Virus record (IMG/VR): IMGVR_UViG_2740892422_000008 | Reading direction: 5' to 3' (one strand) | DNA: 7,995 nucleotides | DNA from: a virus | Lineage: Duplodnaviria > Heunggongvirae > Uroviricota > Caudoviricetes | In this document: positions 1 to 7,902 of the stretch, one piece after another | Numbering within the stretch: position 1 is the stretch's first letter | How the letters are laid out: each line of letters opens with the position of its first letter | Program-made: the position numbers and the translations under genes | Notes under the pieces: generated by a model | Seen by the model: only the letters and a program-made list of their open reading frames with translations | Databases searched by the model: none | Told to the model about the DNA's origin: nothing

Positions 1-1236
1 CTACGATAACCGCGCATTCAACATAGCTACCTGTTCGTCGTTCATGTCATCAATCCACATACCGTAAATTTCATACACCATCTGCGCAGTTTCATGCCCC
101 ATCTGGCTGGCTATAAATGCCGGGTTCGCTCCTGCCGTCAACAGCCAGCAGGCAAAAGTATGTCGCGTATGGTACGGATTACGGCGGCGAATACCAGCAC
201 GTTTTACTGCTGCATTCCATCTCGCACCCAAACTGCTTACCGAGTAATAAGGTTTCTGTTTTCCGTTACACATCCTGGGCATGAAAACAAAATGCAGTTT
301 TTGCTTTTCAGTTCTGCCGTACTCCCGATGATAAAAAGTGATTTCGCTTTTGCGATGATGCCCGGTCAGTTTGTATTGCTCCTTCAGTGCTTCAAGAGCT
401 GGCTGTAGTAGTGTTACCGTCCGGATCCCCGCATTTGTTTTTGGGGGACCGAACATATCAAGTATCGTCAGGTTTCTTCTGACATTCACAATTCCCTTCT
501 CGAAATCCACATCCTCCCACGCCAGAGCTGCCAGTTCCCCGTGACGAAGCCCGGAGTAAACGGCAAATTTCCACAAGTTCTGGCTCTGTCCTTTTTCACT
601 TTCCATTAATGCATTGAATTCTGTTTTAGATAACGGGTCAGGCTTTATTCTGTTTCGCTGTAATTTTTTTACTCCTTCAAATGGTTTGGTTGATATAAAT
701 CCCGACTGATACGCAAAACGTAACAACGAACAGAGCAGGGCGATATAGTTATCAACTGTGCGCACGGTTCTTCCTTTTTTGTTGGTTCTTGGATTATCCA
801 GGTAAAGCGTTTCTCCATGCAGCAGTTCATTCCGGTAGTTTAAGATATCGCTATAACGAATATGCGATATCGGGGTACTCTCACAAATTATTATCCTGAG
901 TGTTTTTAATTGTGATTTCGTTTTCTTCATTGTGTTTGTTGTTAACTCTGTCTCTTTAATTTTTGTCCAGATATCACAAAGCTCCCCGAACGTTTTTATG
1001 ACCCTCGTTGTCACCATTTTTGCCCCAGTGCTGGACTGGGGAAAACGTCTTAAATACTCAAATTCACCGGAATTGATTTCATGAACTATCAACGCTCTTA
1101 AATTCCCGGCTTTTTTAATGTTACTGTTAGTAACCTCCCAGCCTTTCAATGTTTCCCGACATCGTTTTCCTCGAAACATGAACCAGATGCGAATGTATTT
1201 ACCTCGAATCTCGACACCTGTTGGTAATTTAGACAT
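1..1236 (-). CDS. intR: Tyrosine-type site-specific integrase, Rac prophage IntR-like (411 aa, complete; stop codon at 1-3)
   Basis: Full-length minus-strand ORF with ATG at 1234-1236. The translation matches Rac IntR as I recall it (MSKLPTGVEIRG...). C-terminal catalytic signature of tyrosine recombinases is visible (H-x-x-R in NPYHTRHTF, tyrosine in the VYEIYGMW region). Start sits 1 nt from the xis stop, the usual xis-int arrangement. Confidence 0.92.
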   Translation of the reverse strand: MSKLPTGVEIRGKYIRIWFMFRGKRCRETLKGWEVTNSNIKKAGNLRALIVHEINSGEFEYLRRFPQSSTGAKMVTTRVIKTFGELCDIWTKIKETELTTNTMKKTKSQLKTLRIIICESTPISHIRYSDILNYRNELLHGETLYLDNPRTNKKGRTVRTVDNYIALLCSLLRFAYQSGFISTKPFEGVKKLQRNRIKPDPLSKTEFNALMESEKGQSQNLWKFAVYSGLRHGELAALAWEDVDFEKGIVNVRRNLTILDMFGPPKTNAGIRTVTLLQPALEALKEQYKLTGHHRKSEITFYHREYGRTEKQKLHFVFMPRMCNGKQKPYYSVSSLGARWNAAVKRAGIRRRNPYHTRHTFACWLLTAGANPAFIASQMGHETAQMVYEIYGMWIDDMNDEQVAMLNARLS

Positions 1237-1237
1237 A

Positions 1238-1453
1238 TCATGAGTCTTTGATAAACTGATTTATCTTTGGATAGTTGTACCAGATAATCCCTCGCTTACT
1301 GTCTGGTTTCCCTAAAGGAGATACTCGTTTGAAGTGGAAGCCTTCCACCCAACAGTTCTGGCGGTATGCTTCAATTTGTCTGGCCCCCAGACCAGTGCGA
1401 AGCATCAGGCCGTATTCAACCATCCACTCTTCATTAAAGATTACTTGTGCCAT
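1238..1453 (-). CDS. xisR: Excisionase-like protein (Rac XisR/YdaQ-like), 71 aa
   Basis: ORF immediately upstream of and co-oriented with int. I chose the ATG at 1451-1453 ([15 protein letters not shown]...) because it is preceded by GAGGTG at about 6 nt spacing; the track start at 1477 is a TTG extension. Sequence matches my recollection of K-12 YdaQ. Confidence 0.8.
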
Positions 1454-1504
1454 CGCATCACCTCTGGCAGGCGCCAATGTTAGACTGAAATTGACGCCCG
1501 ATGT

Positions 1505-1520
1505 TGATTATTAATAATCA
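1505..1520. promoter_or_regulatory. Perfect 16-bp AT-rich palindrome TGATTATTAATAATCA in the ydaC-xis spacer (candidate dimeric regulator binding site)
   Basis: Exact dyad symmetry read directly from the sequence, centred 52-67 bp upstream of the xis start codon. Confidence 0.3.
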
Positions 1521-1552
1521 GCTATGAAGTTTTAATTTGAATACAATGCAAT

Positions 1553-1753
1553 TCACGACGACTGAAGTTTCTCGCAATTAAAATTTATCAGTTTTACTTT
1601 CTGCTCTCTGGAAATGCCTGCTTCTTTTTTACCTGAGAGCATTTTTTCGCATTCTGATTTGGTTAATTTTGTTTTTGAGTACCTTGTCCAGTTAGTAGGA
1701 GTGCCACCTTCCTTTTCAATAGTGGCGGTAATTTTATACATGAACACCTCCAT
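1553..1753 (-). CDS. ydaC: YdaC-like small prophage protein of unknown function
   Basis: Minus-strand ORF (…MEVFMYKITATIEKEGGTPTNWTRYSKTKLTKSECEK…) resembling Rac YdaC from memory. Start is ambiguous: ATG at 1753 (66 aa), ATG at 1741 (62 aa, preceded by GGAGG at 5 nt spacing), or ATG at 1813 (86 aa, overlaps ralR by 80 nt). The 3' end of ralR overlaps the 5' region. Confidence 0.65.
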   Translation of the reverse strand: MEVFMYKITATIEKEGGTPTNWTRYSKTKLTKSECEKMLSGKKEAGISREQKVKLINFNCEKLQSS

Positions 1754-1928
1754 TATTATTTCCAGTGGTTCGTTTATTCCATCGTTCGAGTGCTTCTTTT
1801 TCACTTCCACCATAGCCGGTTCGGGATTCGCATCCGTTACACTTCGCGCGGTAATATCCTGAAATGGCTTTCACCGTTACTGATGGACAACCACAAAAAG
1901 GGCATGGTTTGACTTTTTCATACCGCAT
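1734..1928 (-). CDS. ralR: RalR (Lar) restriction-alleviation protein / type I toxin DNase, 64 aa
   Basis: MRYEKVKPCPFCGCPSVTVKAISGYYRAKCNGCESRTGYGGSEKEALERWNKRTTGNNNGGVHV matches my recollection of K-12 RalR. Two CxxC pairs (CPFCGC … CNGC) form a zinc-ribbon-like motif. The track start at 1943 adds 5 aa; the K-12-like start is the ATG at 1928. Confidence 0.85.
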   Translation of the reverse strand: MRYEKVKPCPFCGCPSVTVKAISGYYRAKCNGCESRTGYGGSEKEALERWNKRTTGNNNGGVHV

Positions 1929-1991
1929 TGTCTTTTCTCTCATAAAATAAAATTTTGTGATGGCGGTGAGGCTACACCGCCAAAGTAAATA

Positions 1992-3044
1992 TCAGGAGCC
2001 GATATATTCTGGTTTCATATCTGTCAGTGTCGTTTTATACGCCTCATATAATTCACCCAGATGTGGCCGGGCAGCATTCAGCGTATTTTCCAGAGCAGTA
2101 AATTTTTGTTCTGCTTCTGGATCACCTGAAGAAGGTAGGTCATTTATCATCTTCTCGATACGGGCAATAGCATTGAGACGGTGATGACGCTGAACCACTT
2201 TTCCTTTAAGTTCCGTATAGAGAGCGCCAAGTGTATTTTTATGATCTTCCACTTCCTGGCGAAGTGCTGTTGTTTCCCCGGTGCTTTGTGCCTGCTCAAT
2301 ACGTTCACGGAAAGCATCGATCCAGTTTTCCCCGGCATCCTGCTCAATAATTGTTGTTTCACGTTCCGCGCGGCAAGCGGAAGTGTTTTTATGTTCCTGA
2401 ACCGGATTAATGATTTTTTCCTGTGGCTCGTCCAGTTCGTCCCTGGTGTACACTCCAAGAATCACTTCGGGGCAATAAAGGCGCGCCCAGCGTTTCAGCG
2501 CCAGATAGGCAAGCTGCTGGCGAGGATCGTCGGCCCATAGCGTTGAATTACGTGTTCTGGCCTGCGCCAGAAGTAATTCCAGTACGCGTGGTTTACTTTC
2601 GCCGCGTAGTGTTGCCTGGACACGAACACCGATCCCGTTTTCATCGGCCAGCTTCCAGCCAGGTACACGATATTCTTTCCCTTTGTCGCTCTTCCTGATT
2701 TCAAATTTCCCGATAATTTTTTCCCACGGCCCGAACCAGTCATATTCAATACGCCCGGTTAGCGGCCCACGAGTACTGATTACGGCATTAACCAGTTGCG
2801 CTTCATATCCGAGCACACCATTCACAACGAAAGTTTTCTGAGCTACTGCGTAAGGGTTCATTTGCCACTGCATCGCCTGCATGGTGATGGCCATGCAGTC
2901 TGATGGATTTCCCCGGAGGTGTTCCGGTACAGTAGCCATGCCGGAAGCCATTACCTGGGAAAATGTCTGAATTGCAGCCAGGGACTGAGGGCTGAAAACC
3001 GCAACATTAGAGTTAATATTTTCTTGTTGAGTTAATTCGTTCAT
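1992..3044 (-). CDS. Phage single-strand annealing protein, Bet/Redbeta-like (RecT/Redbeta superfamily), 350 aa, with a ~130-aa helical C-terminal extension
   Basis: ATG at 3042-3044 preceded by GAGGAAGG, 11 nt downstream of the exonuclease stop (translationally coupled pair). Core motifs align by eye to lambda Bet: GNPSDCMAITMQAMQWQMNPY…VNGVLGYE versus GDASDAQFIALLIVANQYGLNPW…VVGVDGW, and KRWARLYCPEVILGVYTRDELDE versus KRMLRHKAMIQCARLAFGFAGIYDKDEAE. It is not the K-12 RecT sequence as I recall it. Confidence 0.72.
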   Translation of the reverse strand: MNELTQQENINSNVAVFSPQSLAAIQTFSQVMASGMATVPEHLRGNPSDCMAITMQAMQWQMNPYAVAQKTFVVNGVLGYEAQLVNAVISTRGPLTGRIEYDWFGPWEKIIGKFEIRKSDKGKEYRVPGWKLADENGIGVRVQATLRGESKPRVLELLLAQARTRNSTLWADDPRQQLAYLALKRWARLYCPEVILGVYTRDELDEPQEKIINPVQEHKNTSACRAERETTIIEQDAGENWIDAFRERIEQAQSTGETTALRQEVEDHKNTLGALYTELKGKVVQRHHRLNAIARIEKMINDLPSSGDPEAEQKFTALENTLNAARPHLGELYEAYKTTLTDMKPEYIGS

Positions 3045-3055
3045 TGTGTCCTTCC

Positions 3056-6000
3056 TCAGATGCTCAGTGCTTCAAGACGACGAAGATCAAAGTCGTTTAA
3101 TTCGTCGGTATAACTTTCGGTAATCGGTGCTGGCCAGTTGTTTGTCTCCAGGGCTTCGTTTATCTGGCGTAGCGTCCGGCGATATTCCTGTCGACCAAGT
3201 TCCAGGAGTTCCTGCGAGGCTTCCACGACTGCCACCCAGTGATAGCCAGCATCTTTGTTGACGAAGATCCAGAAAAATTTGTCCAGATTTGCCACATCGC
3301 AATACATTGCTGCGCTGAGGTGATAATCACGCTCAATAATTTCACGGTGCAGGCGATCTTTCAGTCGTTCCTGTCGCACATAACCGAGGCTGACTGACTT
3401 CACGTCGGCGCAAATGCTTTCGTATGGCAGCCGGATTTCGATATCAGGACGGACCCTGATTTCCAGCCCGGTTTCTTCATCAAACCCGAAATAGCTGATT
3501 TCAGATTTGCGATCCGGGTGGTTGAGTAGCCTTGCTGCATCAGTATTGTTTTGCAGTGCAGCGTGAATATTTTTTGCCTGTTCATACATATCTGAACTGA
3601 TAAACGTTTTCCCGGCGTTTTCTTCTTGCTGGCGTTTTTGCCAGTCCTCCAGGGTAACCAGTTCCGGGCGGATTTTCCGAGCGATTTCGGTTAATTGCTC
3701 TTTCGTGCCACTGATGTTGTAAGGCAAAGATTTAGCACGTTCTTTTTTCGCCAGTTCTGGATCTACAGTTTCAATTTGCTCCAGAAGTTGCTCCCGTGTT
3801 CCACTGGTTTTCAACAGAGGAGGGAGGTTTGCATTGTATTCTCTAATGCAGGCTTTCATTGCCGATGCAGTATGTTTCTCCTCCTCCGGAATACGCCGGA
3901 ATTCCACCGGAAGCGAACCGTAAAGGATGCCTGTTTCTTCGGCTCCAGCACTTACAGACAGTGGCTGTATAAGAGTGCTGTTGTAGCTTTCGATCCACTC
4001 TTTCATCTGCTCTGGTGTCATCAGTGCTGGCAGACTGGCATTGTGTTTTTTAATGATGGCGATCAGTTCGCTAGAAGTAGTAACCACATATTCAGGAACT
4101 GGTACCGGAATGGCATATTCATCAGCGAATTTATCCGTTTCCAGAACATAGCTGTGAATGATCCGCCCACGCAGCAGTGCATCACTTTCCTCGTTCGGAA
4201 TAGTTCCGGCAATGTGCCGTCCGTGGTAATACATCAGGCTGATACGGGCATCCTTCAGCATCGTGCTGCTTATTCCGTTGGCGGAGTGATAAACCTCGTT
4301 CGGGAGGTTTTCATAGCGGCCAGGCTCGAAATATGACGGCCACATGATTTCAGTTGCTACAGGAGCTGACGCTTCACCAGTTTCATCACTGCAATCACGA
4401 TGCGGATCGCTGCCAGCATTCTCATTGTGCGGATGTTCAGCGCCTTCCATTTCCACCGGATCTTTTTCCTTAGCTTCAACCTGATTCTCTTCATCGAATG
4501 TTTCCTGGTATGTTGCGTCGCCCGTCACCGCCCCACAGTCAGGGCAGTTATCTCCGCCAGTCTGACCGCAGGCATTGCAGACTATTTCCGGTTCCTGTTG
4601 CACTACTGGCTCAGGTTGTTTCACATCCGGGCTGGTTTTTTCCGTTTCTGGCTGGTTCTGGTACACAGAATCGCGAGTCTGGATCCCCTTAACCCATTTC
4701 GGATCGTTCGGGTCGCTAATTCCGTCAACAAATTCACCACGTGATGCAGCAAGCAATTTATCGGCATCGACAGGATTTTTTGATGGAATGTTTTTCCGGG
4801 CTTCATGGAGTTCTGCCCGCAGTTCCTGATATTTCGCATCAACAGAATTTACCGGTGACTGAGCATCCAGCGGCTGCGTGTCCTGATGATGTTTAGTTGC
4901 GTCCGGTTCCATTGTTTCAGCCTCTCCCTGTTCATCTGCCGTTGTTCCAGATGGTTGCGGTTTTTCTTCATCATCCTGTTTTCCTTCTTCTGTTACTCGC
5001 TGCGGCATCGGGGCAGAGGAGCGACCGCAGGCAATATCCACGATTTCCGGATCAGGGTTGGCATGATCGGTTTCAGTCAGTACTTTGTTCAGATATTCAG
5101 TGACGTGCGCGGGGGTGACCTCGATCCCAATTGGTGCTTCTTTTACGGACGCAACCACGATGGCGCGGGAATAATCCAGCCCGCCAGGCATGGTGATGAA
5201 TTTGTCGCGGAAAACAGAAAAGGGCGGTTTATTTTCAGCGATAATTTCCTCAATGCGTTTAGCGTGTGCCGGATGAAGGTTATAGATGTCCAGATCCATT
5301 GAACGGGCCAGTACGCCAGTGGCTACGTCGCGCGCCAGTGACGTCAGATCGTGTACGAAACCTTCGCCGCGATCGGTGAGGTTTCCGCCGCCAGCATTAG
5401 CACCGGAAGCCGTGCGAGTGATGTGTGAAACACGATTACCCTTCATCCACTCTTTTGTCAGCAGTCCTCGATCGGTGTAGTCAGCGTTCAGGTATGCTTC
5501 GAAAAAAGCAGTTATCAGTCCCAGGTTTGAATTACCAGGATTAGGGAAAACTTTGTCAGTGTCACGAACCAGTTTGTGGAGTTCGCGAATTTCCAGCGGG
5601 GCGAGCAGGCTGGTTTTGTGGGAAACAGCCAGGGCAGTAACAGCCGGTAGTTCTTCAGCCCGAGCAATGTGTAATGCCTGGAGTCCGTCGCGTGAAACGT
5701 GCGTTACCGGTTTTTCGCTGCCGTGTTGAGCAAGCCAACGAATGGGCAGTTCCTGGCCAGAAATTGGGAGTAGCATATTCTCCTCAATCTCAGTCATGTC
5801 TTCGCCGTTGACGTTGGTATTGCCTTGATAGTGAGCGTTGTCTGGTGCTGCTCCCGGTTTTAGTTCCCATGTCATGGAGTCTTTGCTGAGTTGATAGCGT
5901 TCACTCCAGGTAAAATCGATCTCACCTTCAGCGGGCAGGTCATTAACGACAGGAAAATTCGTGGCAACAGCTTTAAAATAGCTGCTCAGTTTTTTACCTG

Positions 6001-6127
6001 ACTTAACGATCAGGTAGTCCAGAGTGGCACAGGTCGATTCAAAATCGTCACTTGCCCACAGGACGACGTCAGGTTCACCGGATGATTTTTTCGCTTTCCG
6101 TAACAGGAAGAGTGGTTTTGTGCTCAT
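3056..6127 (-). CDS. recE: Exodeoxyribonuclease VIII (RecE-family 5'-3' dsDNA exonuclease), 1023 aa; N-terminal ~585 aa K-12 RecE-like, C-terminal PD-(D/E)XK domain divergent with a repeat insertion
   Basis: ATG at 6125-6127 with GAGGT upstream. N-terminus [26 protein letters not shown]… matches K-12 RecE from memory. The C-terminal domain keeps RecE-type motifs (YH…GIS.S.L.D; IRVRPDIE…ADVK matching the RPD…DVK catalytic core) but is otherwise divergent. Confidence 0.88.
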
Positions 6128-6199
6128 TGTTTTTTAACCTCAACTCAGATTAAAATTCGTTTTGTTCAGTGAATGATCTTGCCGGATACACACTGTTCA

Positions 6200-6222
6200 T
6201 AGCCTGCGCCATACGCAGGCTA
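6200..6222. other. Perfect 9-bp stem / 5-nt loop hairpin in the racC-recE intergenic spacer
   Basis: TAGCCTGCG ccata CGCAGGCTA. Followed on the plus strand by TTTCTTTC, but not by a U-tract on the minus (gene) strand. Confidence 0.3.
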
Positions 6223-6228
6223 TTTCTT

Positions 6229-6504
6229 TCAGATTTCACCTTTTAATTTCATTGCAATCAGAGTTGCCAGAAATCCGGCTTTTTTTTCTGCGGGCAGATT
6301 CTTTCCGATATGCACCAGGCTCATTTTTTTGACACCTTCGTGAAGTGTTTTAACGTTGCCTGATGGACCGTCGATATCAACTACAGTGAATGGGGTTTCT
6401 TTATTTTCTGTTTTAATCACGTAGCCAATACGCTTTCCTTCCAGATTAACTTCGTGAACAATGTCATCAGTAGTTACAACAGTGGCTTCATAACTGGTAA
6501 TCAT
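6229..6504 (-). CDS. racC: RacC prophage protein, 91 aa
   Basis: MITSYEATVVTTDDIVHEVNLEGKRIGYVIKTENKETPFTVVDIDGPSGNVKTL… matches K-12 RacC from memory. ATG at 6502-6504 is preceded by AAGGAG; the track start at 6552 is an upstream extension. Confidence 0.88.
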   Translation of the reverse strand: MITSYEATVVTTDDIVHEVNLEGKRIGYVIKTENKETPFTVVDIDGPSGNVKTLHEGVKKMSLVHIGKNLPAEKKAGFLATLIAMKLKGEI

Positions 6505-6578
6505 GTTTTTCTCCTTAATTAAGGTTGAGCGAATCCCTGCCATTGCTGGCATAAATTCAGTTTCGCATAGTCAGTTAA

Positions 6579-6749
6579 TTAAAGTTCGTGTGCCATCTGG
6601 TCTTTTTCGGCACATATTTCACTACAATATTTTTTCATTTCCGTCGTTGGGATAACTCCACGCATGAAATGAAGTGGTCTTTTAATGCTTTTGCTTTCTT
6701 TAACTTCTTTATCGCAAAGGTGGTAAGCACATTTTATTTTCTTAGTCAT
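6579..6749 (-). CDS. ydaE: YdaE-like small Cys4 zinc-binding protein, 56 aa (absent from the ORF track, below its size cut-off)
   Basis: Manual translation of the minus strand gives [56 protein letters not shown], stop TAA at 6579-6581. Cys pairs C7/C12 and C42/C46. Its ATG (6747-6749) overlaps the kilR stop as ATGA, indicating translational coupling. Position between kilR and racC matches the Rac gene order. Confidence 0.8.
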   Translation of the reverse strand: MTKKIKCAYHLCDKEVKESKSIKRPLHFMRGVIPTTEMKKYCSEICAEKDQMAHEL

Positions 6750-6970
6750 CACCATGACTCCGCCTTTACAGGTAAACCATCACGACCGAGGAAGACTTTA
6801 ATCATGCAGTCAGTAATGCATGTTTTTGTGGTCAGGTTACGAATATAAAGCTTTCGCTTTTTAATATTGTTTGCCGAGGCAATATATGTCCGGCCTTCAT
6901 GAAGAACATAATCGCCAGGAGTCACACACTGACGTGGTATTTCATCAGTTCCGAAGTGATGTGCAATCAT
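6749..6970 (-). CDS. kilR: KilR, Rac prophage cell-division (FtsZ) inhibitor, 73 aa
   Basis: [73 protein letters not shown] matches K-12 KilR from memory. ATG at 6968-6970 is preceded by GGAG at ~7 nt; the track start at 6982 adds 4 aa without a good RBS. Confidence 0.9.
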
Positions 6971-7141
6971 AATTATCTCCATTTTTACAAATGAACTTTG
7001 TTGATGCGGTGCCTGGTGCCTCCAGGTGACTGCAACCAGTTAACAATTACAGTCGGCTTTCCCACCCAAACCAATAAGGACTAACATGACTTTTAACTGT
7101 GCCACGTGCGCTTAGCCGCATTCACCGCATCACAAAACTCA

Positions 7142-7193
7142 CTTTAAAAAGGGCGGACATCAGCCGAACTTCAAGAAAAAAACTGATGCCGCC
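7142..7193 (-). terminator. Candidate intrinsic terminator on the minus strand, upstream of kilR
   Basis: Inverted repeat GGCGG(a)CATCAG (7152-7163) / CTGATGCCGCC (7183-7193): 11 bp with one bulged base and a 19-nt loop. On the minus-strand transcript it is followed directly by CUUUUUAAAGU (plus 7141-7151). No U-tract follows it on the plus strand. Confidence 0.35.
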
Positions 7194-7411
7194 AGGACTA
7201 CACACAGCAATGTCGTTATTTACAACCGGAGGCGCACTCCCACCATTTAAATTTAACAGACAAGACCGACTCTTTATGGATATCGGAAATGCGCCTTCGT
7301 GTTGTGCCCGGTTTTATTTCACCACCTCCGGGCTTCGGTGGTCTCGGCTATACCCCTACAGCGAGAGCTTGTGTTAACATTTCAATACCCTTACAGTTGA
7401 GAGTTATTGAT

Positions 7412-7900
7412 ATGTTGGATATATTTACTCCATTGTTGAAACTTTTTGCTAACGAGCCACTCGAAAGACTTATGTATACGATTATCATTTTTGGTCTCAC
7501 TCTCTGGCTGATACCGAAAGAGTTTACTGTCGCATTCAATGCTTATACTGAAATACCTTGGCTCTTTCAGATTATCGTTTTTGCCTTTTCTTTCGTGGTC
7601 GCCATTTCCTTCTCAAGATTGCGAGCACATATTCAAAAGCATTATTCATTACTACCAGAGCAACGAGTATTGCTTCGTTTATCTGAGAAAGAAATCGCTG
7701 TATTTAAAGATTTCCTTAAAACAGGAAATCTTATTATCACTTCTCCTTGCCGTAACCCGGTTATGAAAAAATTAGAACGGAAGGGCATCATTCAACATCA
7801 GAGTGATAGCGCAAACTGTTCTTATTATCTCGTCACCGAAAAATACTCCCATTTTATGAAGTTATTCTGGAACAGCAGGAGTAGACGTTTTAATCGTTAG
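7412..7900 (+). CDS. sieB: SieB superinfection exclusion protein, 162 aa, two predicted N-terminal transmembrane helices
   Basis: ATG at 7412 (MLDIFTPLLKLFANEPLERLMYTIIIFGLTLWLIPKEF…), stop TAG at 7898-7900. Matches Rac SieB from memory. Hydrophobic segments at about aa 21-36 and 48-67. The track start at 7289 is a non-ATG upstream extension. Confidence 0.88.
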   Translation: MLDIFTPLLKLFANEPLERLMYTIIIFGLTLWLIPKEFTVAFNAYTEIPWLFQIIVFAFSFVVAISFSRLRAHIQKHYSLLPEQRVLLRLSEKEIAVFKDFLKTGNLIITSPCRNPVMKKLERKGIIQHQSDSANCSYYLVTEKYSHFMKLFWNSRSRRFNR

Positions 7901-7902
7901 CT

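Follow-up and report, generated by a model that had tools for sequence, protein, structure and literature searches.

The closest described relatives of the locus studied here are the RecE/RecT pair of the Rac prophage of E. coli K-12, the Red pair of phage lambda and the recET orthologues of the Gifsy-1 and Gifsy-2 prophages. The N-terminal domain of K-12 RecE has been described as of unknown function, while the nuclease domain (residues 564-866) is genetically sufficient for recombination; the PD-DXK site, His-652 and a segment of disordered DNA-capturing loops at the channel rim (residues 665-698) have also been described (PMC11611040). In lambda, the C-terminal domain (CTD) of the annealing protein Redbeta (Bet) binds both lambda Exo and the C-tail of SSB (PMC6393309). 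The C-terminal helical bundles of RecT have been proposed to couple the protein to RecE or SSB; in some predicted complexes the RecE-facing interface is a short C-terminal element only, not the whole bundle (PMC13490951). The Gifsy recET orthologues are repressed in the lysogen, and when mutationally activated they suppress recombination defects, according to two later papers that cite Lemire et al. 2008 (PMC3121763, PMC8496262).

We analysed a 7,995-nt stretch of DNA (the window) from the caudoviricete record IMGVR_UViG_2740892422_000008. The element that carries the locus is the E. coli Rac prophage at ttcA. We read the locus, with good confidence and chiefly from sequence comparison, as a two-component 'SynExo' recombinase of the Gifsy-prophage type residing in Rac, in which the CTD of the annealing protein (SSAP) would serve as an adaptor.

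Replacement of a contiguous cassette in Rac

The gene order is that of K-12, intR-xisR-rcbA-like-ralR-SSAP-recE-racC-ydaE-kilR-sieB. The SSAP gene (1992..3044, minus strand) is an open reading frame of 350 aa with an ATG start; recE (3056..6127, minus strand; 1023 aa) is directly upstream and ends 11 nt before the SSAP start. The first-pass annotation had placed a 350-aa protein beside a RecE-type exonuclease, at the position that follows recE in K-12 Rac and holds recT (269 aa) there, and it was right on each of these points. A Shine-Dalgarno-like purine run, GAGGAAGGA (3049..3057, minus strand), overlaps the recE stop and reaches to within 4 nt of the SSAP ATG, a position consistent with translational coupling of the two genes.

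Blastn against K-12 Rac aligned positions 1-1982 (95.9%) and 4358-7902 (97.7%) but nothing in the interval. The boundaries, at 1982/1983 and 4357/4358, enclose 2375 bp (1983..4357) that have no detectable DNA similarity to the 1640 bp found there in K-12, and that extend from about codon 591 of recE, where the catalytic domain starts, to 9 nt beyond the end of the SSAP gene. A contiguous 2.4-kb cassette has been replaced, by one or a few recombination events; outside it the Rac-type N-terminal region of RecE and the flanking genes are unchanged. The catalytic domain of RecE was exchanged jointly with the SSAP, a point missed by the first-pass annotation: this is no foreign SSAP set next to the nuclease of K-12 RecE, for RecE 591-1023 was replaced too.

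The resulting RecE is a hybrid: its N-terminal region is of the Rac type, its nuclease domain of the Gifsy type. The whole protein has Pfam matches to Exonuc_VIII and DUF3799 and scores 1517 bits on the NCBIfam equivalog for exodeoxyribonuclease VIII, NF007259 (cut-off 1269). The N-terminal region (residues 1-590; 4358..6127, minus strand) is ~97% identical to K-12 RecE by BLASTP. The predicted PD-DXK 5'-3' exonuclease domain (residues 591-1023; 3059..4357, minus strand) is of the long Gifsy type: compared with the nuclease domain of K-12 it shows only 25-30% identity by BLASTP and is ~150 aa longer, and its C-terminal tail is unlike that of K-12 and shared with Gifsy-2. In an alignment of six sequences the catalytic residues H658, D895, D908 and K910 align with H652, D748, D759 and K761 of K-12; the site is intact, and the domain would be expected to have 5'-3' exonuclease activity. 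Multiple alignment also revealed an insertion of ~135 aa relative to K-12-type nucleases (RecE ~679-825; 3653..4093, minus strand), likewise present in Gifsy-2, that falls in the 665-698 segment of K-12 RecE. BLAST self-comparison of the insertion found no internal repeat, and a motif repeat perceived by eye is unsupported. BLASTP of the nuclease domain against lambda Exo gave no match at E<=0.01, and single-sequence AlphaFold2 modelled the domain at a pLDDT of only 35.8.

The pair is a complete Gifsy-type nuclease and SSAP unit carried on the N-terminal region of Rac RecE. Its breakpoint is at the junction between the region that is dispensable in K-12 RecE and the nuclease domain. The finding shows that what RecET systems exchange as a unit is not entire genes but the catalytic domain of the nuclease plus the annealing protein. 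Low dN/dS ratios (0.02-0.10 for the SSAP, 0.04-0.10 for the nuclease domain) indicate purifying selection on both SSAP and recE. The SSAP ratios, with intact reading frames in >160 genomes, rule out a decaying pseudogene. Among 5426 complete E. coli genomes, 193 (~3.6%) carry the SSAP gene and 1749 carry K-12-type recT.

Identity of the annealing protein

The first-pass annotation had suggested a profile search, allowing that the protein might belong to no annealing-protein family. The search places it in Pfam PF03837, with 147.5 bits (cut-off 24) and E 4.6e-43; residues 30-209 cover profile positions 2-190 of 198. Bet and K-12 RecT, scored as controls, gave 115.6 and 188.9 bits, and the family is common to all three proteins. 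The claim of an annealing protein "instead of RecT" holds in that the protein is not K-12 RecT, but not at the level of the Pfam family, nor in RefSeq, where the label is 'RecT family recombinase'. Finer classification separates the two: the best PHROG for the SSAP is phrog_561 (E 1.3e-145), and K-12 RecT belongs to phrog_148. We assign the protein to the phrog_561 subfamily (Gifsy-type 'RecT') of the RecT/Redbeta superfamily, as a predicted annealing protein distinct in sequence from K-12 RecT, and infer its annealing activity from that assignment. For SSAPs of this type, the genetic evidence is for the Gifsy orthologues only, which are ~49% identical (PMC3121763, PMC8496262).

Residues ~10-209 (2418..3017, minus strand) form the annealing core, predicted to be a Redbeta-like DNA-binding and oligomerisation domain. 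Core motifs had been said to align with lambda Bet, and they do so in profile comparison: hhalign of the SSAP family profile against the Bet family profile gave E 4.4e-4 over 138 collinear columns, pairing SSAP 42-216 with Bet 34-187 and aligning QWQMNPYA with QYGLNPWT, GPWEKII with DGWSRII, and STLWADDPRQQLAYLALKRWARL..GVYTRDE with GPWQSHPKRMLRHKAMIQCARL..GIYDKDE. (The Bet and K-12 RecT profiles were built from homologous proteins, the related loci holding only 99-100% identical copies.) On these alignments the likeness of the motifs to Bet is genuine, if distant, and the SSAP is nearer to Bet than to RecT. The AlphaFold2 model of the SSAP, which has two domains, has a mean pLDDT of 69 and a low pTM (0.35), with only moderate confidence in the core, and Foldseek of the full model against the PDB gave no match at E<=0.001. 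Searches of PDB chain sequences with phmmer and with a profile (hmmsearch) returned spurious helical matches only and no SSAP.

Three other identities for the protein can be weighed against this assignment. That it is an ordinary K-12-type RecT, misjudged by the first-pass annotation, would agree with its Pfam family, its genomic position and its RefSeq label, yet K-12 RecT is matched only at E 0.36 in BLASTP and, with no more than 36 columns aligned, at E 0.3 in hhalign; BLASTP of K-12 RecT against the Gifsy-2 homologue gave no match. Among NCBIfam models none matched the SSAP even at E<=1, including the RecT models NF007351 and TIGR00616, on which K-12 RecT scores 464.5 and 415.7 bits. The protein is also 81 aa longer than RecT, and the DNA of 1983-4357 is unlike K-12's. 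The BLASTP, blastn, hhalign and NCBIfam results refute this identity, which we regard as having practically no chance of being correct. The literal reading of the first-pass annotation, a true lambda Bet orthologue from a lambdoid phage standing beside a non-cognate RecE nuclease, is very improbable, if somewhat less so. It can draw on the remote collinear similarity described above, on a BLASTP match between Bet and the Gifsy-2 homologue (E 1.5e-4) and on phrog_10056, to which the SSAP cross-matches weakly and which Bet also matches. Against it, the bet_lambda equivalog TIGR01913, on which Bet scores 169.5 bits (cut-off 76.95), was not matched by the SSAP at E<=1, direct BLASTP to Bet reached only E 0.02 over 34 residues, the PHROG of the SSAP differs from that of Bet (phrog_252), and the CTDs of the two proteins are unrelated in sequence. 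Moreover the nuclease domain was exchanged with the SSAP and is always its companion, so the partner is cognate. Finally, in GenBank and UniRef several close homologues go by the name 'enterohemolysin' or 'RecT family enterohemolysin', a name on some database records of family members that we take to be left over from a phage clone associated with haemolysis. As a function for this protein it deserves almost no credence, given the strong match to an SSAP family and the predicted Redbeta-like core; the SSAP always adjoins, or is fused to, a RecE-type nuclease, and nothing in our analyses of it pointed to secretion or membrane activity.

The C-terminal domain and its nuclease partner

Beyond the core, the C-terminal region of the SSAP is 141 aa long. 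It consists of a linker predicted to be disordered (residues 210-238, or about 193-238 in the AlphaFold2 model; 2331..2417, minus strand; pLDDT 26-41), which is weakly conserved and of variable length in the family alignment, and of the 112-aa CTD (residues 239-350; 1995..2330, minus strand), a putative nuclease-docking module. Structure prediction, which the first-pass annotation had also proposed, gave a CTD made up entirely of helices (AlphaFold2, pLDDT 78-90). That annotation had described an extra helical, charged region of ~130 aa: helices and charge are borne out (33 of the 112 residues are D/E/K/R, with a net charge of -5), but the region is not strictly extra, because Bet has a CTD of its own, of 79 aa, a three-helix domain related to lambda Orf. 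No sequence relationship between the two CTDs was detectable by hhalign (E 0.17 over 9 columns), and structural matches to the SSAP CTD were generic helical bundles. The CTD is conserved across the long-form family, and its terminal DMKPEY motif is near-invariant.

Among related viral loci, all 80 long-form SSAP loci have the long nuclease domain directly upstream. Identity in the CTD follows identity in the nuclease domain closely (r=0.976, 77 loci; likewise in two further lineages), and identity in the core does so far less (r=0.43); these figures represent ~4-5 independent lineages rather than 80 independent points. At loci L185-194 and P0013 the core is 56-57% identical, the CTD 84-99% and the nuclease 98%; on the DNA the core is flanked by the nuclease domain on one side and the CTD on the other, yet it is the core that was exchanged. 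At the Erwinia locus P0091 the values are 81% for the core, 38% for the CTD and 52% for the nuclease. Where SSAPs with similar cores have the short K-12-type nuclease as partner, a different tail, of 86 aa, takes the place of the CTD, and in phiV10 nuclease and SSAP are naturally fused. The CTD tracks the nuclease and the core does not; therefore the CTD is probably a partner-docking module, as in Redbeta. The co-evolved variant module proposed in the first-pass annotation is sustained to the extent that the module and its nuclease do seem to be mutually adapted. It is not new, being present in Gifsy-2, at the 80 viral loci and in the 193 E. coli genomes.

The co-variation could instead reflect where recombination breakpoints fall, rather than selection for a partner. 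One possible breakpoint site is the very conserved sequence that codes for WARLYCP.VILGVYT, located where the core ends. Joined to this, one may suppose that the CTD chiefly engages host factors, for example to bind SSB, or regulates oligomerisation, and that its co-variation with the nuclease is a historical accident of linkage and breakpoints. The few independent lineages behind the correlation and the possible hotspot at the core's conserved 3' end lend themselves to such a view, as do the binding of the SSB C-tail by the Redbeta CTD (PMC6393309) and the suggestion that extended C-terminal bundles may give accessory surfaces for SSB or unknown factors (PMC13490951). We nevertheless think it unlikely: the exchanged part is the core, in spite of its place between nuclease domain and CTD, and the type of tail changes with the type of nuclease among phages of similar core. 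Long-form and short-form pairs both have enterobacterial hosts, so host adaptation is no obvious cause of CTD divergence.

The adaptor reading, with the SSAP docked to its own nuclease through the CTD, would give the following course of events, which for the enzymatic steps draws on the known families. Upon derepression of the prophage, the PD-DXK domain of RecE would resect the 5' strand at a double-stranded DNA end, and the 350-aa SSAP would then be loaded on the emerging 3' single strand, where its Redbeta-like core would oligomerise and anneal complementary single-stranded DNA. The 112-aa CTD, on its flexible linker, would dock the SSAP to its own nuclease domain, as the co-variation suggests; it may also contact SSB, in parallel with the Redbeta CTD and its binding of lambda Exo and the SSB tail.

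More tentatively, and with the odds somewhat against it, the CTD might bind the lineage-specific ~135-aa insertion, as an elaboration of the DNA-capturing rim loop, or else the distinct C-terminal tail of the nuclease, a docking mode structurally unlike that of lambda Red, with the N-terminal domain of RecE independent of the cassette. If so, docking would place the SSAP on the face where DNA enters or leaves; the N-terminal domain of the hybrid RecE would prove to work whichever nuclease/SSAP cassette follows, and the locus would supply a third natively adapted SynExo pair of E. coli, possibly with recombineering properties unlike those of RecET and Red. Apart from the docking site, the comparisons show that core and CTD of the SSAP can be shuffled separately while the CTD stays matched to the nuclease, and they offer comparative support for SSAP CTDs as determinants of partner specificity. 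They also give practical guidance for the design of chimeric recombineering pairs, in which CTD and nuclease would be retained together and the core exchanged.

Comparison with known systems

The K-12 RecE/RecT pair shares with this locus the prophage, the integration site, the gene order and the PD-DXK and PF03837 superfamilies. K-12 RecT differs in having no BLAST-detectable similarity to the SSAP, which adds a structured CTD (predicted). Lambda Red resembles the present system in the design of Redbeta, which likewise joins an annealing core to a helical CTD through a flexible linker; its partner is lambda Exo, a trimeric YqaJ-like exonuclease, whereas here it is of the RecE type (Exonuc_VIII, DUF3799, NF007259). 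Family scans found no Gam homologue among the open reading frames of the window.

The exoVIII and RecT-like pairs of TL-2011b, SPN1S and phiEt88, and the 'RecET' fusion of phiV10/epsilon15-like phages, have SSAP cores 49-65% identical to the present one. Their SSAPs are always coupled to a RecE-type nuclease, by fusion in phiV10. The nuclease of these phages is of the K-12 type, short and stand-alone, with 48-53% identity to the K-12 RecE C-terminal domain, and the SSAP tail is the different 86-aa sequence.

The recombination system is of an already known and annotated kind, that of Gifsy, and the locus reveals no new kind of system; it is ordinary in kind, its mosaic is tidy, and it amounts to an E. 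coli-native RecET variant, found in the ~3.6% of complete genomes noted above. In Gifsy-2 of Salmonella Typhimurium, STM1009 and STM1008 have the same architecture: a large RecE with a nuclease domain of the 433-aa type, followed by an SSAP of ~350-370 aa. STM1008 is 48.6% identical to the SSAP over its full length, with a CTD of the same type (49%), and residues 529-959 of STM1009 are 51% identical to the RecE nuclease domain from end to end. The two systems differ by this ~50% sequence divergence, by the N-terminal region of RecE, which here is ~41% identical to that of Gifsy-2 and Rac-like instead, and by the prophage backbone, which is that of Rac at ttcA and not Gifsy.

Prophage setting and family of the annealing protein

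A Rac-type prophage of E. coli, integrated beside ttcA, makes up the window, and the queried gene is 100% identical to that of strain RM10740. Gene calls and family scans gave intR (1-1236), xisR, a DUF1187/rcbA-like ORF (1553-1813), ralR (1734-1943), the 350-aa single-strand annealing protein (SSAP) ORF (1992-3044), the 1023-aa recE (3056-6127), a racC-like gene, ydaE and kilR, all on the minus strand, and lastly sieB, the sole plus-strand gene. This is the gene order of K-12 Rac, where recE is followed by a 269-aa recT, as the first-pass annotation stated; it also had the coordinates and length of the 350-aa ORF exactly right. The RalA antitoxin sRNA (Rfam RF02694) was found at 1557-1735 (+), scoring 212.7 bits where the gathering threshold is 170; it is antisense to the DUF1187/rcbA-like ORF, adjoins ralR and overlaps the ralR ORF, thus the Rac RalR/RalA type I toxin-antitoxin pair is conserved next to the swapped cassette.

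The first-pass annotation had read the 350-aa protein as having Bet-like core motifs and as not being the standard RecT, and had proposed an HMM search. That search finds membership in an annealing family: residues 30-209 match Pfam RecT PF03837 (147.5 bits, E 4.6e-43), which also takes in lambda Bet (115.6 bits) and K-12 RecT (188.9 bits). The PHROGs differ, the best for the SSAP being phrog_561 'RecT-like ssDNA annealing protein' (E 1.3e-145), while Bet falls in 252 and K-12 RecT in 148. No NCBIfam model matched the SSAP even at E<=1, nor its Gifsy-2 homologue, with controls behaving as expected (Bet to TIGR01913; K-12 RecT to NF007351 and TIGR00616). Pairwise BLASTP was not significant against K-12 RecT (E 0.36) and marginal against Bet (E 0.02, a 34-residue motif); the Gifsy-2 homologue was found by Bet (E 1.5e-4) but not by RecT. 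Family profiles built from 258, 78 and 110 sequences were compared by hhalign: window family against Bet gave E 4.4e-4 over 138 collinear columns (window 42-216 on Bet 34-187, at 34% probability), against RecT E 0.3 over 36 columns, and Bet against RecT E 0.014 over 129 columns. By these sequence comparisons the SSAP is best classed as an annealing protein that is yet strictly neither RecT nor Bet: within the RecT/Redbeta superfamily it forms a third subfamily, lying a little closer to Bet than to RecT. The Bet likeness is real, though remote.

The subfamily is very large: at E<=0.001 there are 4716 cluster representatives (50% identity), most having only the core in common. The SSAP gene occurs in 193 of 5426 complete E. 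coli genomes, annotated 'RecT family recombinase', and K-12-type recT in 1749 of them. In GenBank and UniRef many subfamily members still bear the name 'enterohemolysin' or 'RecT family enterohemolysin', which is at odds with every sequence, structure and context result here. An SSAP 100% identical to the window's E. coli Rac protein is recorded in 'Actinobacillus phage vB_Apl-pPE4' (PP818812.1, 796-1845; named host Actinobacillus pleuropneumoniae), which could be E. coli prophage sequence, wrongly attributed or present as a contaminant, or else a transfer of unusually recent date. The Bet search also returned several E. coli proteins (P0284-P0295 and P0310; one on 77 contigs), 275-331 aa long and mostly of 307 aa, in which at least about 75% of lambda Bet (PF03837) is joined to a phage-integrase domain (PF00589); deletions in defective lambdoid prophages probably fused the two.

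An AlphaFold2 model (30-sequence alignment, mean pLDDT 69) has a core of moderate confidence, a predicted disordered linker (~193-238) and an all-helical C-terminal domain (CTD, 239-350, pLDDT 78-90), bearing out the helical C-terminal region noted at first pass. The CTD is conserved across the long-form family, ending in a near-invariant DMKPEY, and its sequence shows no detectable relation to that of the Bet CTD or the RecT tail. Its structural matches are generic helical bundles only, among them UvsW.1, a likeness also noted for some RecT C-terminal extensions (PMC13490951).

The exchanged cassette and the integrity of its genes

In BLASTP the window RecE is ~97% identical to K-12 RecE up to residue 590; beyond it identity is 25-30%, with ~150 residues more. 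The DNA matches K-12 Rac at 95.9% over window 1-1982 and at 97.7% over 4358-7902, and the intervening 1983-4357 (2375 bp) has no detectable DNA similarity to the corresponding 1640 bp of K-12. The right junction is recE codon 590/591, and the left lies 9 nt beyond the SSAP stop codon. The break in RecE together with these DNA boundaries shows that the nuclease catalytic domain and the SSAP were exchanged as a unit, not the SSAP alone. This is the main correction to the first-pass annotation, which saw a non-RecT partner beside a RecE-type exonuclease: the partner is indeed not RecT, but the exonuclease domain was itself swapped. The RecE N-terminal domain has no known function (PMC11611040).

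That N-terminal region (4358-6127) is mosaic elsewhere: among related loci (L166-L194) with nuclease domains 97-100% identical to the window's, identity over the first 590 residues varies between 55% and 100%, so in other lineages recombination has left at least one further boundary near codon 590. At the left junction (1982/1983) lies a GC-rich inverted repeat, GGCGGTG-N6-CACCGCC (1962-1981, minus strand), starting one base into the K-12-homologous flank and 10 nt downstream of the SSAP stop; a T-rich stretch comes only 9 nt further on, extending to the ralR ATG, so the repeat is not a canonical intrinsic terminator.

Both genes look functional from their sequences. The PD-DXK signature and extra histidine (motif described in PMC11611040) are intact, window H658, D895, D908 and K910 aligning with K-12 H652, D748, D759 and K761. 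Pairwise dN/dS against 95-99.8% identical alleles indicates purifying selection (0.02-0.10 for the SSAP, 0.04-0.10 for the nuclease domain), and a Shine-Dalgarno-like purine-rich run, GAGGAAGGA, overlaps the stop codon of recE, with its end 4 nt upstream of the SSAP ATG. In one E. coli locus (L250, CP101983.1, ~1985-4980) recE has no gene call and the downstream SSAP gene is intact; the N-terminal-region matches switch from one frame to another around codon 306, so this recE looks frameshifted.

Two features set the long nuclease type apart from the K-12 one, a ~135-aa insertion (window residues ~679-825) and a different C-terminal tail, both shared with the Gifsy-2 nuclease. In our alignment the insertion maps inside K-12 RecE residues 665-698, disordered loops at the channel rim with a presumed role in DNA capture (PMC11611040). 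By eye the insertion (3653-4093, minus strand) holds an 18-letter and a 16-letter motif pair, which would suggest internal duplication of short helical units; this is unsupported, since BLAST self-comparison of the insertion reported no repeat.

Matching of C-terminal domain and nuclease

The pairing is conserved: all 80 long-form SSAP loci on viral contigs (SSAPs 53-100% identical) have a large ORF ending just upstream with a long-type C-terminal domain (45-100% identical), and none has a K-12-type nuclease. Across 77 loci, standing for perhaps four or five lineages rather than 80, identity to the window nuclease domain co-varies with that of the CTD (r=0.976) far more than with that of the core (r=0.43). 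Loci L185-194 have cores of 56-58%, CTDs of 82-85% and nucleases of 97-98%; for L195-242 the values are ~74%, ~46% and ~50%. An E. coli homologue (P0013) has core 57%, CTD 99% (linker 100%) and nuclease 98%, and an Erwinia one (P0091) 81%, 38% and 52%. On the DNA the core is flanked by the nuclease domain and the CTD, so the piece exchanged is the middle one. Breakpoints may simply cluster in a highly conserved coding stretch at the core's end. The SSAPs of TL-2011b, SPN1S, phiEt88 and phiV10, however, have cores similar to the window's (49-65%) with a different tail of 86 aa, and are paired with or fused to a short K-12-type nuclease; the phiV10 protein is a natural fusion of such a domain (48% to K-12 RecE 595-862) with a window-type core (61-65%). 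We take the co-variation as evidence that the CTD is a partner-matching module, matched to the nuclease where the core is not. This fits the Redbeta CTD, which binds lambda Exo, loading Redbeta on the resected strand, and also the SSB C-tail (PMC6393309), and a coupling role, to RecE or SSB, recently proposed for the C-terminal helical bundles of RecT (PMC13490951). In SPN1S (L247) an HNH endonuclease gene (2539-2949) separates the exonuclease VIII and SSAP genes, which abut or overlap in TL-2011b and phiEt88; a homing endonuclease may have inserted into this SynExo pair.

By analogy with the Red and RecET families, the RecE domain would resect 5'-3', the SSAP would be loaded on the 3' overhang through CTD docking, its Redbeta-like core would oligomerise and anneal, and the module would be repressed in the lysogen.

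The first-pass observation was correct and its interpretation partly right: the annealing protein and its nuclease look co-adapted, but the module type is known and annotated. The general idea of C-terminal domains as coupling modules is likewise already published. Modestly new are the exact position, at the RecE domain boundary, of the mosaic junction inside the gene, the finding of a Gifsy-type nuclease on a Rac N-terminal region, and the comparative evidence that the CTD, not the core, stays nuclease-matched. The cassette is a Gifsy-type one, akin to the recET of Gifsy prophages that has been characterised genetically: its nuclease domain shares 51% identity end to end with the C-terminal domain of Gifsy-2 STM1009, and its SSAP 48.6% over the full length with the adjoining STM1008. 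[quoted passage not shown] 2008).
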